A DNA stretch of 64,000 bases from a virus, in IMG/VR virus record IMGVR_UViG_3300035698_018280, positions 32,001-96,000 of that record; one strand, given 5' to 3'. Of the stretch, positions 10 to 39,538 are shown piece after piece (position 1 is the stretch's first letter; the number at the start of each line of letters is the position of its first letter). The notes under the pieces are model-generated. The model saw nothing but the letters and a program-made list of their open reading frames with translations, was not told where the DNA came from and made no database searches. Both the position numbers and the translations under genes were made by a program.

Positions 10-492
10 TCACCAGTCAATGCTGCAATAATCGCAAAACTTACGAAGAGCATCATAAACCGCTCCATGTCCGCCATTATTAACAGACTGGTAATTCGAG
101 CAATCTACGACTTCAGGTATTGCATCTAATGGACAAGCAGTCCATTCTGCTCTTGACATAACTTCAACATCATTCTCTGCATCGCCAATATAGCCAAGCG
201 AAGACCATTCAAGACCCCTGGACTCCAATACTTGCTTCATCTCTTCAAATTTATTACGAATGCCTATATAGATCGTAAAGTCAAAGTCTAAGCATTTTTC
301 CACAATTATAGAGTCATCTGCAGAAGTCATAATCAGGATTTCGTAACCAAGCTGCCTCATGCGATTGAGCGCATAAAAATCTCGTGTATGAAATTTTTTA
401 GAGATAACACCTGCTTCATTCACCTGATAACAACCATCAGTAAGCGTGCCATCGACATCAACAGCAATCACCTGTACTTTGTCAAGATCCAT
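10..492 (-). CDS. kdsC: KdsC-family HAD phosphatase (KDO-8-P / KDN-9-P phosphatase-like)
   Basis: HAD motif I DVDGTLTDG, KKFHTRD, YIGDAENDV, C-terminal GGHGAV; directly downstream of neuB. Confidence 0.9.
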   Translation of the reverse strand: MDLDKVQVIAVDVDGTLTDGCYQVNEAGVISKKFHTRDFYALNRMRQLGYEILIMTSADDSIIVEKCLDFDFTIYIGIRNKFEEMKQVLESRGLEWSSLGYIGDAENDVEVMSRAEWTACPLDAIPEVVDCSNYQSVNNGGHGAVYDALRKFCDYCSIDW

Positions 493-1348
493 AGCCTTCT
501 CCGCTAAACTTCAACTTATTACGTTGAGATAGTTCTTCGTCGTCCATCGACTTGGGTTTGTTTTGCAATGCACGATGAACGGCCTTGAGATCCCTACAAA
601 GCTTCTGGAGGCCGCTGGGTTCGAGACTGGCGGCAGCATCAGTATGATTGAGTAATCGATCATCAACGAAGTGCCTCTCAATCCATTCCGCACCGATCAT
701 ATGCGCTGCTACGTCTATGGCGATGCCTTTACCGTGATTGCTGAATCCAATTTCAATTCCGTATTTTTTGAGCGGCTGCATTTTCTCAATTTCAAGTAGA
801 TACAAATCATCAAAATTACAAGGATATTTACTGGTGCAATGATAGTAAACGATACGATTGCCAATAGGTTTCATCCATTCAACAAGCTCAACAGTTTCTT
901 CAATAGTCGTCATCCCTGATGATATATGGATCTTGCCTGCGTACTCATCTCTCAGAATATTCATCATCTCCCAATGCTGATTGCAAGCGCTTGGTACTTT
1001 GATAAAATCAGGATCCAAAGAAATTATTTCTCTAGCAGAAGTAATATCCCAAACTGAAGTTGAATATGCAATGCCAATACTCTCGCAATACTCTTTTAGT
1101 TCAATATGCTCTTCTATACTTAATTCAAGATTCTGGCGATGTTGAAGATAGGTTTCTCCGTAAGAAAACATCTTATTCGGATGCGGTTTGTCCCTCATAT
1201 GTAGAGGAGTGCTTTCTGATGGGTTTCGCTTTTGCGTCTTGATATAATCTGCGCCGCACAATTTAGATAGATTTACAAGTTCTTTCGCTCTATCAATATC
1301 GCCAAGATGGACGCACCCAATCTCAGCTATTACTTTTGCTTGCTTCAT
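482..1348 (-). CDS. neuB: N-acetylneuraminate/nonulosonate(-9-phosphate) synthase, short form without the C-terminal AFP-like/SAF domain
   Basis: VIAEIGCVHLGD, GADYIKTQKR, IKVPSA, SSGMTT, YHCTSKYP, GFSNH, IERHF, TDAAASLEP; only 288 aa. Confidence 0.93.
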   Translation of the reverse strand: MKQAKVIAEIGCVHLGDIDRAKELVNLSKLCGADYIKTQKRNPSESTPLHMRDKPHPNKMFSYGETYLQHRQNLELSIEEHIELKEYCESIGIAYSTSVWDITSAREIISLDPDFIKVPSACNQHWEMMNILRDEYAGKIHISSGMTTIEETVELVEWMKPIGNRIVYYHCTSKYPCNFDDLYLLEIEKMQPLKKYGIEIGFSNHGKGIAIDVAAHMIGAEWIERHFVDDRLLNHTDAAASLEPSGLQKLCRDLKAVHRALQNKPKSMDDEELSQRNKLKFSGEGYGS

Positions 1349-2112
1349 GTTAGAAATCCCCCTTGAACTTCCGCCATCTTTTCCATGATTAGAAAGTCCT
1401 GTTCAGTATCAATTTGCATAGACTGAAATTGATCAGTCTCATATATCACTGGATTTCGTCCATATCGACCATGAGACTTGAATAAGTCAGCATCTACTGC
1501 GTAAACATTTCCGTTATCATGAAAGTAAAAGTCTTTTTCAGGTATATCTTGTCGCATAGGCCGCTCAAGATTGGAGTAATTAGCATAAGGCTTCCCATCT
1601 TTATCAAGCTGCCAGAAAAATGGAGTATGACGAGAAACAGTCAGGACGCTATCGGCCTCTTTATCTATCATCTTTTCCAGACACCGATCAATCAGCATAT
1701 TATTACGACATGGAGACGTAGGTTGAAGAAGAACAATATACCCAAAATCCATCTTATAAAGATCGCTAAGAACTTCAAGAGCATGAGTCATAGCATCTTC
1801 AGTTTTTGCTGTTGAGTTTGACAATTCATCTGGTCTAAGAATAGGATAAAGACAGAATTTTAGTTCAAGAGGTGTTGTTGTTTCGTCCAAAATATGCCAT
1901 TTTGCATGTGACTTATGAATCATTGCCGCTGAAATACATTTATCGCAGTTCGATGAAACAGCAGCTACGTCTATGTATTTGCTCATGGCAGCAGCTTCCA
2001 TGCTCCACCAAATAAGAGAACGTTTATAGATTTCTCGATAGTTCTTACCAGGGACACCTTGGCTATTAGCGCGCGCCGGTATTATTGCAACTACCTTTTT
2101 ACCATTTAACAC
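1345..2112 (-). CDS. neuA: CMP-nonulosonate synthetase (acylneuraminate cytidylyltransferase)
   Basis: AIIPARANSQGVPGKN, LLQPTSPCR, RQD, NGNVY, IDTEQDF. Confidence 0.92.
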   Translation of the reverse strand: MLNGKKVVAIIPARANSQGVPGKNYREIYKRSLIWWSMEAAAMSKYIDVAAVSSNCDKCISAAMIHKSHAKWHILDETTTPLELKFCLYPILRPDELSNSTAKTEDAMTHALEVLSDLYKMDFGYIVLLQPTSPCRNNMLIDRCLEKMIDKEADSVLTVSRHTPFFWQLDKDGKPYANYSNLERPMRQDIPEKDFYFHDNGNVYAVDADLFKSHGRYGRNPVIYETDQFQSMQIDTEQDFLIMEKMAEVQGGFLT

Positions 2113-2873
2113 TTTTTACGATCTCCGTATTTTTTAATGACATCTTGTAGATCCCAATTCTTACCAAAACACTTCAAGATACCGCCAGGCGATGCATAAA
2201 TTATATTTGCTTTATCTTTATTAGTTTCAGCAAATTTTTCCCAATACTCAATAAAGTCTACACAATGACTATCGACAGGAGAGCCATGCACCCTCCCTCG
2301 ATTGGGGCTAGAAAAAACTTCTCGGCCCTGATATTGATATCCTTTCTGTTCATTAGGGAATTGCCAGAAATATCGTTTGTTACCATGATAACAACAATCG
2401 CAGCCCAGCAATACGATCGGGTCACAGCCCATGATGTATGAAAAATGAATAGCTGTAGCAAGAGAAGTGCGAGCGCCAACAATCGGAGCCTCAGCATCTT
2501 TTGTTATCGTGCCTCCGCCTTTTCGCCATGCATTCTTGCTCGGCTCATACCAAGACTTGTGATTAAACAGAACAACTTCGTCAGGTCGGAAATGGTTTGT
2601 TGCGTTCTCTAGTTTTGTTTTAAAGAGCAACTTCGTAGAACGACTATTGCGAGCCGTTTCTCTGTAGTAATTCCAATATTGAACGCCATGATCATCAGTT
2701 ACAAAATAATCACAATCAGGTAATCTTTTTGGAACAACCAACATACCAGAATTTACAGCAAGAGTAACATAGTCTTTCAAAGGAGAGATATCTTGAAAAT
2801 GCAGCGAAGGCCCTGCTCCGATCACAAACCCCATCTTTCCTTTATGCTTATCTTGAAGGTCTGTCAGTTTCAT
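2106..2873 (-). CDS. DUF115/Maf-like putative nonulosonate transferase (paralog 2)
   Basis: GFVIGAGPSL, LAVNS, GARTSLATAIHFSYIMGCDPIVLLGCDC; adjacent to neuA. Confidence 0.7.
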   Translation of the reverse strand: MKLTDLQDKHKGKMGFVIGAGPSLHFQDISPLKDYVTLAVNSGMLVVPKRLPDCDYFVTDDHGVQYWNYYRETARNSRSTKLLFKTKLENATNHFRPDEVVLFNHKSWYEPSKNAWRKGGGTITKDAEAPIVGARTSLATAIHFSYIMGCDPIVLLGCDCCYHGNKRYFWQFPNEQKGYQYQGREVFSSPNRGRVHGSPVDSHCVDFIEYWEKFAETNKDKANIIYASPGGILKCFGKNWDLQDVIKKYGDRKKC

Positions 2874-3649
2874 TTTTTACGATCTTCGTATTTTTCTAGA
2901 ACTTCTTGCAATGTCATCGACGGAAATGAATCGATCAATCCTCCCTCAGATGCATAAATAATGTTTGCATCAGTGTTTGATTGTCGCAAACGGTTCCAAT
3001 ATTCATTGAAGTCGCAACAATGCTGGTCTACAGCCTTGCCTTTTATATGCCCTCGATCTGCTCTGCAATATGCTGGCTTAGAGCTTGTCAGCCTTACGGC
3101 TCTCTGTTCTCCTGGGAACTGCCAGAAGTATCGTTTGCCATGACGATAACAGGCGTCGCATCCAAGAAGTACAATAGGATCGCAGCCCATCAGATAGGCC
3201 AGATGAACGGCTGAGCCAGAAGAAGTACGAGCCCCTATGATTGGGACGGACGCATCTCGGCTCATTTCATAGCCTTCTAGGTTGTTTGCTTGAAAATCTG
3301 GATTGTGTCCTGATACATGATCGTACCACACAACTTCGTCCTTGCAAAAATGGTCAATCTCATTTACAAGCTTTTCCTTGAAGAGCAGCTTTATACATTT
3401 GCTCTTTTTGGCTGTAAGTTTGTAGTAGTTCCATTGATTTGCAGCGGTATCATCAGTTACAAAATAATCGCAATCAGGCATCTTGAGAATACCAGAATTG
3501 ACTCCAAATGTAACGTAATCGCCAAGAGCGGAAGTATCTTGAAAGTGTAGAGATGGTCCAGCGCCGAGAATGAAAGCCATCTTGTTGAGATGAAAACCTT
3601 CAAATTCCTTAAGGTTTTTAGTCAAATTCGATGAATTCGCCTCGCGCAT
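2870..3649 (-). CDS. DUF115/Maf-like putative nonulosonate transferase (paralog 1)
   Basis: AFILGAGPSL, FGVNS, GARTSSGSAVHLAYLMGCDPIVLLGCDA; clear paralog of 2106..2873; the real start may be the TTG at 3625. Confidence 0.7.
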   Translation of the reverse strand: MREANSSNLTKNLKEFEGFHLNKMAFILGAGPSLHFQDTSALGDYVTFGVNSGILKMPDCDYFVTDDTAANQWNYYKLTAKKSKCIKLLFKEKLVNEIDHFCKDEVVWYDHVSGHNPDFQANNLEGYEMSRDASVPIIGARTSSGSAVHLAYLMGCDPIVLLGCDACYRHGKRYFWQFPGEQRAVRLTSSKPAYCRADRGHIKGKAVDQHCCDFNEYWNRLRQSNTDANIIYASEGGLIDSFPSMTLQEVLEKYEDRKK

Positions 3650-4031
3650 TGATCTCGATCTCTATAGCAATATTATCTTCTTCGGCTGATTTTGCTTTCT
3701 CTATATCGCTATCAGGTATAGAATCAAAATAAACAACAAATTGTAGCAGGTATAAATGTTTAGTAGCATGATAAGAGGCTCGACGAACAAAGCATTCCTG
3801 CTCATTATTACCGACCCTCAAAATAGCTGTTGCGCTAATATCGAAAGGTTCTGTAGCTATCGCTCCTTTCAAAGGAGGCCCTAGCTTGTCTTGCTCATTT
3901 ACGTCTATCCACGCCTCATAAATAACCTGTTTGCTATCCCAGTCTACTTTGAGGTTTCTCATTTTGCTGAGCGCTATTTCTCTTTCTCGCAAAATAATAT
4001 AATCGTTCGCTTTCGGTATGAATATTTTCAT
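3618..4031 (-). CDS. hypothetical protein
   Basis: 137-aa ORF in operon context; ends RGEFIEFD. Confidence 0.7.
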   Translation of the reverse strand: MKIFIPKANDYIILREREIALSKMRNLKVDWDSKQVIYEAWIDVNEQDKLGPPLKGAIATEPFDISATAILRVGNNEQECFVRRASYHATKHLYLLQFVVYFDSIPDSDIEKAKSAEEDNIAIEIEINARGEFIEFD

Positions 4032-4040
4032 TACTACATC

Positions 4041-4241
4041 TCATTCTAGATCAAGAAACTCCCCGCGAGAAGTTTCATTAGATAGTTTATCTATCTCTTT
4101 TTGTAATCTTTTAGCTTTATCTTCTAATACTTTCTCTTTCTTTTCTTTATAAGAAAGCAGTCCTCGGTCTTTATCATGTTGATCCATTTCAACGATCTGA
4201 TGTCCAACAACTTTCATTTTTTTAATATTGCCATATGACAT
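4041..4241 (-). CDS. small hypothetical protein
   Basis: 66-aa ORF coupled (TAATG) to the upstream methyltransferase; ends RGEFLDLE. Confidence 0.65.
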   Translation of the reverse strand: MSYGNIKKMKVVGHQIVEMDQHDKDRGLLSYKEKKEKVLEDKAKRLQKEIDKLSNETSRGEFLDLE

Positions 4242-5275
4242 TATTCTTTTTCCGCGAAAAGATCTTGTTCTTTAAACATGTTCTCAGGAGATGTTTTCAT
4301 TAACCTACCATTACATTCCTTTAAGAACTTACTGTTAACTTCAATTCCCTTGAAGTGCCTACCATGCCTTAAGCACGCAACCCCTGTTGTAGCTAATCCC
4401 ATAAACGGGTCTAAAATAATTGGCTTTTCATAGCTATCAGTCGGAGTAGGACATTCCCAACCAATATGGGTTATTTCTGTAAGGTGCCTACCTATGTCTC
4501 TCAAAGCTTTGCCGGTAATCTCTTTCTTAGACTTCGTGCCAGAGCGAGTAGCGTATCGCTTCCTATCAACAATTCGTATCGCTGGTTGTCCTGTAGTAGG
4601 GTGTACGCCTTTATCGCTTGTTCCTGCCCTCGTCATGATCTCAGCTAAAAGCGGAGGAAAAGTAGAGCAATGCGAAGACCAGTTTTTTCGAGTAGGAACG
4701 TCTAATACCCAATAATCTTCTTCTGGCTCTAAAACAATAGAATCACCATTGCGAAACAAACGGGTTGTAAGGCCAGCTTGCTCTTTGGCTGAAAACTGAT
4801 CATAGTAATAATCGTTTTTGTTCTTTGCAAACATCATAACGACTTCTAAATTATCATTTGGTCTCTTAGCTCCGCCTCTAGGTATTCCGTTGCGCTTCAA
4901 CCATGGAAACCATTGTTTCTGAAACCAACCATGCTTCTTCATGCTTTCCGCAAATAAAAACGGAATATTCATAACATTACCATCAAAAACACGGTCTCCC
5001 ATGTTGACCCATAGCGTTCCATCATCACGAAGGACATTACTAACTTCATCAAAAGCTTCGCAAACATTAAAGATATAGCCATCTAAGGTATCTTCATTAC
5101 CTAGCTGTTCAACATCCCCGTAATCTCGTTGTTTCCAGTAGGGAGGACTGGTTATACAAGAATGAACGCTTTGTTTCTCAAACTCTTTTGGCAAAACATT
5201 TCGAAGATCACCTTCGTAAAGATCAAATTTACCCTGCTCACTATAACTTGTCGCCATAAGGTATCCCCATATCAT
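4241..5275 (-). CDS. DNA methyltransferase (N4-C/N6-A, beta class)
   Basis: Catalytic TSPPY near the N-terminus, SAM-binding LDPFMG near the C-terminus; start may be the ATG at 5257. Confidence 0.9.
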   Translation of the reverse strand: MIWGYLMATSYSEQGKFDLYEGDLRNVLPKEFEKQSVHSCITSPPYWKQRDYGDVEQLGNEDTLDGYIFNVCEAFDEVSNVLRDDGTLWVNMGDRVFDGNVMNIPFLFAESMKKHGWFQKQWFPWLKRNGIPRGGAKRPNDNLEVVMMFAKNKNDYYYDQFSAKEQAGLTTRLFRNGDSIVLEPEEDYWVLDVPTRKNWSSHCSTFPPLLAEIMTRAGTSDKGVHPTTGQPAIRIVDRKRYATRSGTKSKKEITGKALRDIGRHLTEITHIGWECPTPTDSYEKPIILDPFMGLATTGVACLRHGRHFKGIEVNSKFLKECNGRLMKTSPENMFKEQDLFAEKE

Positions 5276-37682: not shown

Positions 37683-38433
37683 TGCAATTCTCCTTTGCCC
37701 AGTTATATAGCTCAATATCATATCTATTAAAATCTTCTAATAAATCATTGACTTTTTTACTGTAATCTTCTGGATTGCGAGATAAATGACTTTTAGTGAT
37801 GCCGCAAAAATAATCTGAATCAGGAATTCTAACTTTATCACCGAACTTTTCACCTACAGTAATTTCTCCAAAATCATCAAGCGAATCCGTATATCCTATC
37901 TTTATGTTTTGAAGATTGATTTTAGCCCTTTCATAAGCTTCATCCATTGGATATCCTTCTCTCCAACACCCTGCGCCGAATGGCTCTCTTATAGCTTTAT
38001 TCTCCATGAAATCATTAACATAAATATCTGGAAGAACACCGCTAAGTTGTCTTGTTAGAAAATTGAAGTTCTTATTTAATTCTCTATAGCGATCAAGCTG
38101 TTTTATAATAGATTCTTCGCTACAGGATTCTTTGGTCTTAAAATATCTTTTGTTATAGAATGCTAAAATAGATAGCATTCGTATTTTAGGTTCCCTCAAA
38201 ATTGTGTAATATGAAGCATCTAAGCCAAAACATTCGTGAAATCCATACGGAAGATGACCATGTATCCAACAATCATCAACAACATCTAAAGGCATACCTT
38301 TTGCTTTTCTCCATGCATATTTACGAAAAGTAACCGGAACTAATGTCTTGTTATGATCCAGTAACAGATTTATAAACGAATGACCACCTGTCTTCGGTAT
38401 ATGTAGGAATATATTAACTTTCATTATTGGCAT
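37669..38433 (-). CDS. PAPS-dependent sulfotransferase (Sulfotransfer_2-like)
   Basis: 5'-PSB motif FLHIPKTGGHS, GHLPYG, 3'-PB motif LREP..RMLS, C-terminal NRYDIELY; start at 38424 or 38433. Confidence 0.85.
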   Translation of the reverse strand: MPIMKVNIFLHIPKTGGHSFINLLLDHNKTLVPVTFRKYAWRKAKGMPLDVVDDCWIHGHLPYGFHECFGLDASYYTILREPKIRMLSILAFYNKRYFKTKESCSEESIIKQLDRYRELNKNFNFLTRQLSGVLPDIYVNDFMENKAIREPFGAGCWREGYPMDEAYERAKINLQNIKIGYTDSLDDFGEITVGEKFGDKVRIPDSDYFCGITKSHLSRNPEDYSKKVNDLLEDFNRYDIELYNWAKENCSAIS

Positions 38434-39538
38434 GTTCTGCTGTGAAGACTTCATGATATTTTTTACTTATATTATTCCAGTCAAATTCCTTGAGAATCTG
38501 CTGATATCCATCTTCTGCTTTTTCTTTACGAAGTTTTTCGCTTGACAACAACTCATCTAAATGCTGAGCAAAACTCTCATGCATAACGCTGTTATACAAC
38601 CATCGACCGCCTGATTTCTTCGCCCCATTAACTATAAAGCCTCCGTCTAATTGATCCATGTTGCCAACATTCAATGAAACCCATGGCAGCTTACTCGCCA
38701 TAGCTTCAAGAGCAACAAGCGGCGCAACCTCAACCTGAGAAGGAAATGCAAAGATATCCGCATCTAAAAACGCCTGAATTGTGTCATCGCGAGGAATATC
38801 AATCAAAAGCTTACTATCAAAGCTGGCTTTCTTCAATGCTTCTTTATGGCGATGCCTCATAACATTTGCTGGTTGAAAATTAACACTGGTGCAAATAAAA
38901 ACTGCTACAAAGTCTTTGCCTCTAGCTCTAAGCTTTTTAAGAACATGCATTAGATGTTCTTGGCCTTTTCCTGGGAAGAAATTAGAAACGCACAAAATCA
39001 TTGGTTTATCAGGAATACGGTACTTCTTTCTAAATGAAAATCCCTTATCCTGAAACTCTGTCAAATCAATAGCATTAGGAATAACATTGACCTCAGCACC
39101 CATCGCTCGGCATGTCTGATAATCTAGGTAATTGTTTGAATGGGTTATTATCGAGAAGTGTTTATGATTTCTGCGAAAAACTCTACCTACATCTCCGTGG
39201 CTGCGCATAAAATTCATGCCAACCATCGCTATGCTCTTCGAGCAATTAATCTTATCGGCTCGACGAATGGTTGTCTCCCATTGCATAAATGAATCGCTAT
39301 AAACCATATAATGATCTGGTTTTAGACCATTTATCTGCCTTATATAAGCATCTGGGTCTCGATTGACAGGATGTATTTTGACGCCATTATGCTCTATAGT
39401 TTTATTGGCAAAGTGAGTCAAGACATGGCAATCCATGCCAAAATCTTTTGTCATAGATTCTGTTATCTGTTGAACTACTTTTTCCGATCCGCCTATATGA
39501 TGCGGAGCCGAATGATTAACGCCTATTACAAGTCGCAT
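38414..39538 (-). CDS. GT4-family (GT-B) glycosyltransferase
   Basis: GGSE, VIPNAID, KGQEHL, FPSQVEVAPLVALEAMAS, FDWNNI. Confidence 0.9.
   Translation of the reverse strand: MRLVIGVNHSAPHHIGGSEKVVQQITESMTKDFGMDCHVLTHFANKTIEHNGVKIHPVNRDPDAYIRQINGLKPDHYMVYSDSFMQWETTIRRADKINCSKSIAMVGMNFMRSHGDVGRVFRRNHKHFSIITHSNNYLDYQTCRAMGAEVNVIPNAIDLTEFQDKGFSFRKKYRIPDKPMILCVSNFFPGKGQEHLMHVLKKLRARGKDFVAVFICTSVNFQPANVMRHRHKEALKKASFDSKLLIDIPRDDTIQAFLDADIFAFPSQVEVAPLVALEAMASKLPWVSLNVGNMDQLDGGFIVNGAKKSGGRWLYNSVMHESFAQHLDELLSSEKLRKEKAEDGYQQILKEFDWNNISKKYHEVFTAEHANNES

Follow-up and report, generated by a model that had tools for sequence, protein, structure and literature searches.

A predicted CMP-Kdn supply-and-transfer module at the head of a large soluble glycan island in a lineage of huge phages

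Five overlapping genes at the start of a 64,000-nucleotide stretch of viral DNA (the window, bases 32001–96000 of the 163,887-bp IMG/VR virus record IMGVR_UViG_3300035698_018280) encode a NeuB-family synthase, a NeuA-type cytidylyltransferase, a HAD-family phosphatase and two DUF115 proteins. [quoted passage not shown] The five open reading frames (ORFs) occupy window positions 10–3649, neighbours overlapping by 4–11 nucleotides (nt):

2870–3649, minus strand: DUF115a, 259 amino acids (aa); Pfam MptE-like, E 3.6e-9; predicted CMP-nonulosonate transferase
2106–2873, minus strand: DUF115b, 255 aa; Pfam MptE-like; predicted CMP-nonulosonate transferase
1345–2112, minus strand: NeuA-type cytidylyltransferase, 255 aa, GTG start; predicted CMP-Kdn synthetase
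482–1348, minus strand: NeuB-family synthase lacking the SAF domain, 288 aa; predicted Kdn-9-phosphate (Kdn-9-P) synthase
10–492, minus strand: C0-type HAD phosphatase of the KdsC/KDN-9-P phosphatase family, 160 aa

The original prediction, made from the letters of the window, had named five overlapping genes of these identities, and the coordinates and the Pfam and NCBIfam matches agreed with it in every particular. In the pathway that we propose, the SAF-less NeuB would condense phosphoenolpyruvate (PEP) with a host hexose-6-phosphate, most likely mannose-6-phosphate (Man-6-P), to form Kdn-9-P; the KdsC-type HAD would strip the 9-phosphate, NeuA would produce CMP-Kdn, and the two DUF115 proteins, as stand-alone Maf domains, would move Kdn onto cytoplasmic acceptors. 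The likeliest product of the island and the module together would be a methylated, acidic glycan carried by virion proteins. What the analysis shows directly are the gene identities, folds, motifs and conservation and the logic of the gene content; we infer Man-6-P as the substrate, Kdn as the product and a virion protein as the acceptor.

The gene content fits a 9-phosphate route (sugar-6-phosphate + PEP → nonulosonate (NulO)-9-phosphate → NulO → CMP-NulO), and the predicted logic of a synthase, a C0-type HAD phosphatase and a CMP-synthetase is supported. Synthesis of pseudaminic acid (Pse), legionaminic acid (Leg) and similar sugars depends on a PLP aminotransferase of the DegT type (PseC/LegC), alongside a 4,6-dehydratase and an N-acetyltransferase. 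No DegT match turned up in the 164-kb contig, nor in any of five relatives, of which three (G001–G003, listed below) are complete. NeuC-type Epimerase_2 was absent from the contig, G002 and G003. The earlier statement that the window holds no neuC, pse or leg precursor genes thus extends to the whole 164-kb contig; in the complete relatives it stands for the Pse/Leg aminotransferase (found in none of the three) and fails for Epimerase_2, which one of the three, G001, possesses.

The case for Kdn centers on NeuA. The protein matched CTP_transf_3, with a PseF/NeuA-like C-terminus (Pfam/NCBIfam), and its best matches in the Protein Data Bank (PDB) are CMP-sialic acid synthetases. A profile built from 20 phage NeuAs scored best with the CMP-Kdn synthetase of Prymnesium parvum (PpNeuA, 9t4z; 161 bits), compared with 138, 133 and 132 bits for the N-acetylneuraminic acid (Neu5Ac) enzymes of Vibrio, Neisseria and mouse. 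Arg196 of PpNeuA gates Kdn, an R196L substitution shifting the preference to Neu5Ac, and Kdn-only bacteria also have Arg at the corresponding position (PMC12934254). The numbering in that paper equals the chain index minus 18 (checked on Tyr183, Gln110 and Leu164-Lys165), and Arg196 corresponds to chain R214 in the segment KCRLG. Its counterpart in the alignment is an Arg shared by all 20 phage NeuAs (R216 in the window protein), whereas the Vibrio and Neisseria enzymes have Phe at this gate-keeper position and the mouse enzyme has Leu. With this Arg and the Sinorhizobium homologues described below, the Kdn-type 9-phosphate reading has moved from a guess to a marker-supported prediction.

NeuB matched PF03102 with 196 bits (cut-off 22.1), covering profile positions 1–239 of 241 and residues 24–264 of 288. 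Its highest-scoring NCBIfam model was NeuB_NnaB, with 175 bits, far below the cut-off of that model. The metal and PEP motifs (the Glu of IAEIG, K.Q, S.H and ERHF) align with those of Neisseria meningitidis NeuB (NmeNeuB) and PseI and are invariant in 32 family members. The C-terminal SAF/antifreeze-like domain, which in the NeuB family caps the neighboring active site, gave no Pfam match in the 288 aa, in agreement with the original prediction. Close relatives (the best 120) are nearly all 279–302 aa long, with two longer outliers, and carry the NeuB Pfam domain alone; SAF-less members are also known in the PDB, as in the short entry 6ncs (290 aa). In a quick maximum-likelihood tree, the phage NeuBs and proteins from Sinorhizobium and Tritonibacter formed one clade (SH-aLRT 98), and a long branch parted this clade from two proteins named PseI and one named NeuB by the Prokaryotic Genome Annotation Pipeline. 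A tblastn search of the plasmid collection located the closest cellular NeuBs, 49% identical over the full length, on two pSymB megaplasmids, that of Sinorhizobium meliloti ml28 and that of S. fredii NXT3. When cellular genome contigs were scanned with motifs of the clade, only two distant NeuB matches appeared, at 28% and 24% identity. A separate NeuB-family protein of 514 aa, with an extra N-terminal domain, is encoded on the Escherichia coli IncX1/IncY plasmid NZ_CP145673.1 (40836–53639), where it adjoins an inositol-monophosphatase-family gene and a GT2 glycosyltransferase gene; this locus could be another pairing of a synthase with a phosphatase.

The HAD protein is a capless enzyme of about 160 aa with the motifs DxDGT ... 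T/S ... K ... GDxxND, all invariant in 15 relatives. It scored 79.5 bits with TIGR01670 (KdsC) and 77.3 bits with NF058599 (KDN-9-P phosphatase), below the equivalog cut-off in both cases, and its PDB matches are KdsC and the Bacteroides phosphatase BT1713. Its gene overlaps that of NeuB by 11 nt and lies next to it in about 20 phage loci.

The two DUF115 proteins (TRANSFERASES), which are 52% identical to each other, both matched Pfam MptE-like with scores that barely passed the cut-off (E 4e-9 and 5e-9). An ortholog of DUF115a in the related locus L004 is 62% identical, and DUF115b has orthologs in about 22 phage loci. An AlphaFold (AF2) model of DUF115b, made from an alignment of 29 family members, had a pLDDT (predicted local distance difference test) of 94, and its best Foldseek match was the Magnetospirillum flagellin glycosyltransferase Maf (E 3.5e-5). 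Structural alignment with VIA-align gave Z 17.9 over 207 residues (root-mean-square deviation 3.2) for the glycosyltransferase (GT) domain of Maf (5mu5, residues 262–519), followed by the archaeal MptE kinase (Z 13.0 over 160 residues), Cst-I (Z 10.5), and Cst-I/CstII and the animal GT29 sialyltransferases as a group (Z ≈10). The family profile matched the Pasteurella multocida GT42 sialyltransferase 9c08 weakly (E 0.016), and in that profile alignment the invariant residues G21, S23, N41, S137, G157 and D159 fall on the GT42 motifs GxGxS, N, T/S and GxD. The catalytic base of CstII is His188; in the D.H...F motif of the DUF115 family a His is common, without being invariant. The full Maf architecture was not found: the chain of Maf has 632 residues, and the 255–259 aa correspond to its central domain alone. 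From the model, the DUF115 proteins are stand-alone Maf-like catalytic domains and putative transferases; the match to Maf and the retained GT42 CMP-binding motifs support a sialyltransferase/Maf fold, in line with the earlier Maf-like reading. We also considered a pterin kinase of the MptE type and rejected it: the match to Maf is both stronger and longer, and transfer of CMP-nonulosonates is preferred because the DUF115 genes are linked to NeuA and NeuB in more than 20 genomes. A search of 5.8 billion proteins gave only 149 DUF115 relatives at E ≤ 1e-5. Every one of them comes from a metagenome or a metagenome-assembled genome (MAG; two bear NCBI MAG names), and cultured organisms contributed none.

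The contig belongs to a huge phage. It carries a UvsX-like recombinase, a two-gene (split) DnaE-type polymerase, DnaB and other helicases (PHROG matches), and because the 163,887-bp record was rated 33% complete by CheckV, the genome size should be about 0.5 Mb. These replication genes, the virus record in IMG/VR and the direct terminal repeats of relatives confirm the phage-like genome of the original prediction, and a bacterial capsule locus, which had been named as a possible refutation, is rejected in view of the phage replication and tail genes on the contig and of those terminal repeats.

The module is also a conserved feature of a phage lineage with genomes of about 0.5 Mb. NeuB has thousands of metagenomic relatives, the best 120 of which are 53–82% identical, several on contigs of 400–570 kb. 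A single-sequence scan of viral contigs for NeuB found nothing, whereas an alignment-based scan of IMG/VR found 36 viral loci with a related NeuB. By tblastn, about 22 of the 36 repeat this gene set, with its order unchanged or almost so: a DNA methylase in some, one to three DUF115 genes, NeuA, NeuB and HAD, often followed by DUF1257, radical S-adenosylmethionine (SAM) and GT4 genes. Since gene set and order recur in about 22 other viral contigs, where NeuB identity ranges from 45 to 67%, the cassette is not a chance assembly, and its conservation in the lineage follows from three relatives with the module that are complete genomes:

G001: 498,568 bp, terminal repeats
G002: 488,051 bp, terminal repeats
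G003: 494,120 bp, 98% complete

Among isolated phages, no close NeuB was present in a collection of 50,697 records, the best match having 35% identity.

Two further minus-strand genes lie upstream of DUF115a:

3618–4031, minus strand: ORF of 137 aa, overlapping the start of DUF115a by 32 nt; cassette membership uncertain
4241–5275, minus strand: N6/N4 DNA methyltransferase, PF01555 (E 1.6e-28); context only, outside the sugar pathway

The 137-aa ORF had no Pfam or NCBIfam match, and L004, the closest relative, was the one viral locus where tblastn detected a homologue, which occupies the equivalent position. The DNA methyltransferase is directly upstream of the DUF115 genes in L004–L011 and L013 as well. 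Promoter and terminator scans performed no better on this DNA than on shuffled sequence.

Described in the original prediction as self-contained, the cassette turned out to be the first five genes, at the 5′ end, of a co-directional glycan island of about 35 kb. The operon runs on to the left of position 1 through 32 kb of nearly unbroken minus-strand genes (L003 and L002, which together make up genome positions 1–32000). Inspection of this region for precursor enzymes, as originally suggested, yielded no Pse/Leg or NeuC genes and a large set of sugar enzymes: at least 15 glycosyltransferases (GT4, GT2, GT9 and GT-D-like), about nine SAM methyltransferases, a short-chain dehydrogenase/reductase (SDR) epimerase and a medium-chain dehydrogenase/reductase (MDR) dehydrogenase. 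[quoted passage not shown] KdsA was found neither in this contig nor in the five relatives examined for it, which include the three complete genomes, and therefore the phage would activate Kdo made by the host. Two further, remote DUF115/GT42-like genes (L002:3507–4139 and L002:4120–4836, both minus strand) aligned with the cassette family at hhalign probabilities of 74% and 87%, one of them with a weak CST-I match, bringing the putative CMP-ulosonate transferases of the island to four. There was no multi-pass membrane protein among the 51 minus-strand ORFs at genome positions 1–37000, and no flippase, polymerase, ABC exporter or initiating phosphoglycosyl transferase among these 51 island ORFs. 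Among the soluble glycan islands that we have met in phages, few are as large.

Directly downstream of the HAD gene are a DUF1257 protein (L002:19571–19981, minus strand) and an AmmeMemoRadiSam-like radical SAM enzyme (L002:18616–19683, minus strand; TIGR04337, 173 bits, below its cut-off), a pair that follows the cassette in about nine related phages too. Farther along, a UDP-glucose/GDP-mannose dehydrogenase is encoded in separated pieces (L003:3603–4754 and L002:1143–1958, both minus strand), one with an Intein_splicing match, the gene being interrupted by an intein/endonuclease. A further glycosyltransferase (phrog_2170) is located off the main island, at window positions 38414–39538 (minus strand), just before the genes for giant tail-tip proteins.

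Several points weigh against a Kdn module acting on virions. The gate-keeper marker is not absolute, because the trout CMP-sialic acid synthetase (CMAS) prefers Kdn despite a Leu at that position (PMC12934254). PseI, NmeNeuB and the short NeuB 6ncs all lie at about the same distance from NeuB. The phylogeny that had been proposed as a check placed NeuB outside the PseI group; the tree was built without LegI and without a characterized Kdn-9-P synthase (BT1714 or that of P. parvum). Membership of the NeuB clade does not guarantee Kdn either, since the Tritonibacter homologue (46% identity) adjoins pseB and pseC. With the HAD profile, KdsC scored 114 bits, BT1713 108–111 bits and the B. thetaiotaomicron Kdo-8-phosphate phosphatase (KDO8PP) 104 bits, leaving these families unseparated. 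The closest relative, G001, carries its Epimerase_2 gene in its own island, the contig covers an estimated 33% of the present phage's genome, and the acceptor is purely inferred.

The same architecture might produce Neu5Ac from N-acetylmannosamine-6-phosphate (ManNAc-6-P), by the animal-type NANS/NANP route, or another, perhaps new, nonulosonate, which we regard as unlikely. The NeuB_NnaB model as top NCBIfam match of NeuB, albeit far below cut-off, Neu5Ac enzymes among the best single-sequence PDB matches of NeuA, the proximity of Epimerase_2 to the cassette in G001, the deep NeuB clade with no characterized member and the many island methyltransferases that could decorate the sugar would all suit it. 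Against it speak an invariant Arg where Neu5Ac enzymes have Leu or Phe, given that R196L lets PpNeuA take Neu5Ac, and the complete relatives, among which neither NeuC nor a NanE-type gene nor an aminotransferase is conserved. Man-6-P is moreover a general bacterial metabolite, and ManNAc-6-P is not. The HAD might instead be a KdsC that feeds the island's KdsB on a Kdo route, with NeuB using an unphosphorylated sugar like classical bacterial NeuB. We consider this improbable, although KdsC outscores BT1713 by a small margin in comparison with the HAD sequence and KdsB is encoded on the same island: the HAD gene overlaps that of NeuB and is its neighbor in phage after phage, and in Sinorhizobium the HAD is fused to NeuA. 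The 98% complete G003 retains HAD, NeuB and NeuA with the cassette NeuA as its sole CTP_transf_3 gene and no KdsB. With a second cytidylyltransferase missing from G003, and KdsA from every relative searched, the HAD would belong with NeuB and not with a Kdo branch.

As for the acceptor, we rank a virion protein as most likely, the host surface as less likely and DNA as unlikely. Remodeling of the host envelope (lipopolysaccharide (LPS) or capsule) for superinfection exclusion or receptor masking is a serious rival to virion glycosylation, even if we think it unlikely to be the answer. Phage glycosyltransferases are well known for serotype conversion, the closest cellular homologues are capsule-locus genes, and the island's KdsB and a GT9 heptosyltransferase-like gene are both typical of LPS-core chemistry. 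A cytoplasmic acceptor is nevertheless favored because the island enzymes appear soluble and export or lipid-carrier machinery was not found among the 51 ORFs; the nearest structural relative, Maf, is likewise thought to glycosylate protein in the cytoplasm. Attachment to phage DNA as hypermodified bases, which the DNA methylase and replication genes directly upstream could suggest and the original prediction had allowed for, now looks very improbable. The methyltransferase is a conserved neighbor, and phage glycosyltransferases that hypermodify DNA have been described (Pyle et al. 2024, as cited in PMC12619734), but a ThyA-family pyrimidine hydroxymethylase, needed for hydroxymethyl-pyrimidines, is absent from the contig and from two of the three complete relatives, which makes a DNA acceptor unlikely. 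The lone ThyA match in the complete relatives (417 bits) resembles an ordinary ThyA, and Maf, the nearest match to the DUF115 fold, is a glycosyltransferase that has been implicated in adding sugars to a protein, flagellin. Nonulosonates are also not known from DNA.

Nonulosonic acids are surface sugars that serve recognition and immune evasion in animals and bacteria. Our literature search returned no description of a phage nonulosonate pathway or of a phage making a nonulosonic acid. As a tentative and rather speculative extension of the Kdn module, it is possible that the 0.5-Mb lineage sialylates its own particles, the stand-alone Maf-domain enzymes capping a complex, methylated Kdn/Kdo glycan on virion proteins. 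Kdn would then be made from host Man-6-P by a phage-specific SAF-less synthase, and the glycan would be assembled wholly by soluble enzymes. If true, bacteriophages would have their first viral nonulosonate glycosylation system. Virion modification would gain a class not seen before, with a bearing on adsorption, stability, evasion of defenses and particle charge in saline waters, and the virion glycan could mimic or mask host surfaces of the K-antigen type. It would also give a function to the phage-specific NeuB clade and to the minimal Maf-type transferase, both compact enzymes of potential use in the synthesis of Kdn glycoconjugates, and offer a testable handle on the purpose of the very large glycosyltransferase repertoires of huge phages.

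The nearest precedent is the CMP-Kdn pathway of Bacteroides thetaiotaomicron, with Kdn-9-P synthase BT1714, Kdn-9-P phosphatase BT1713 and a CMP-Kdn synthetase, and that of P. parvum (PMC6200933, PMC12934254). The phage encodes the same three activities together, without NeuC, and its NeuA resembles that of P. parvum in the gate-keeper Arg and in the best profile match. Unlike these pathways, it is phage-borne, uses a NeuB from a separate SAF-less clade, and is coupled to Maf-like transferases and a 35-kb glycan island; the phage HAD, too, shows no clear leaning to BT1713 over KdsC.

A second parallel is found among the capsule (K-antigen) genes of Sinorhizobium (S. meliloti ml28 pSymB 1071672–1090577, and S. 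fredii NXT3), in the order NeuB, a 389-aa NeuA-HAD fusion, a DUF6716 glycosyltransferase and an alpha-2,3-sialyltransferase. The N-terminal half of the fusion aligns with the phage NeuA and the C-terminal half with the phage HAD. The two systems share the three activities, the gate-keeper Arg of NeuA and a SAF-less NeuB of the same clade, and no NeuC was found at the Sinorhizobium loci; they differ in that NeuA and HAD are fused and the transferases belong to other families in Sinorhizobium, which also has genes for capsule export, absent from the phage (ABC permease and KPS proteins). A polysaccharide of 5-O-methyl-Kdn is reported from S. fredii (Gil-Serrano et al. 1998, as listed in PMC9000132). 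The link to the phage module predicts these apparently uncharacterized loci as candidate genes for that published Kdn K-antigen.

The DUF115 proteins share the fold of the central GT domain of Magnetospirillum Maf (5mu5), and with Cst-I and CstII of GT42 both the fold and the GxGxS, N, S and GxD CMP-binding motifs; at about 255 aa they dispense with the N- and C-terminal domains of Maf and have no flagellin context. Mycobacteriophages (Freeman et al. 2023, as cited in PMC12619734) and giant viruses also encode soluble glycosyltransferases, and these presumably modify virion proteins while still in the cytoplasm. As far as we found, those systems have no nonulosonate pathway. We predict that the phage system is a Bacteroides/Prymnesium-like CMP-Kdn pathway joined to Maf-type transferases, set apart from the known systems by being phage-borne, by its SAF-less NeuB clade, by its minimal Maf domains and by a very large island for soluble glycan assembly.

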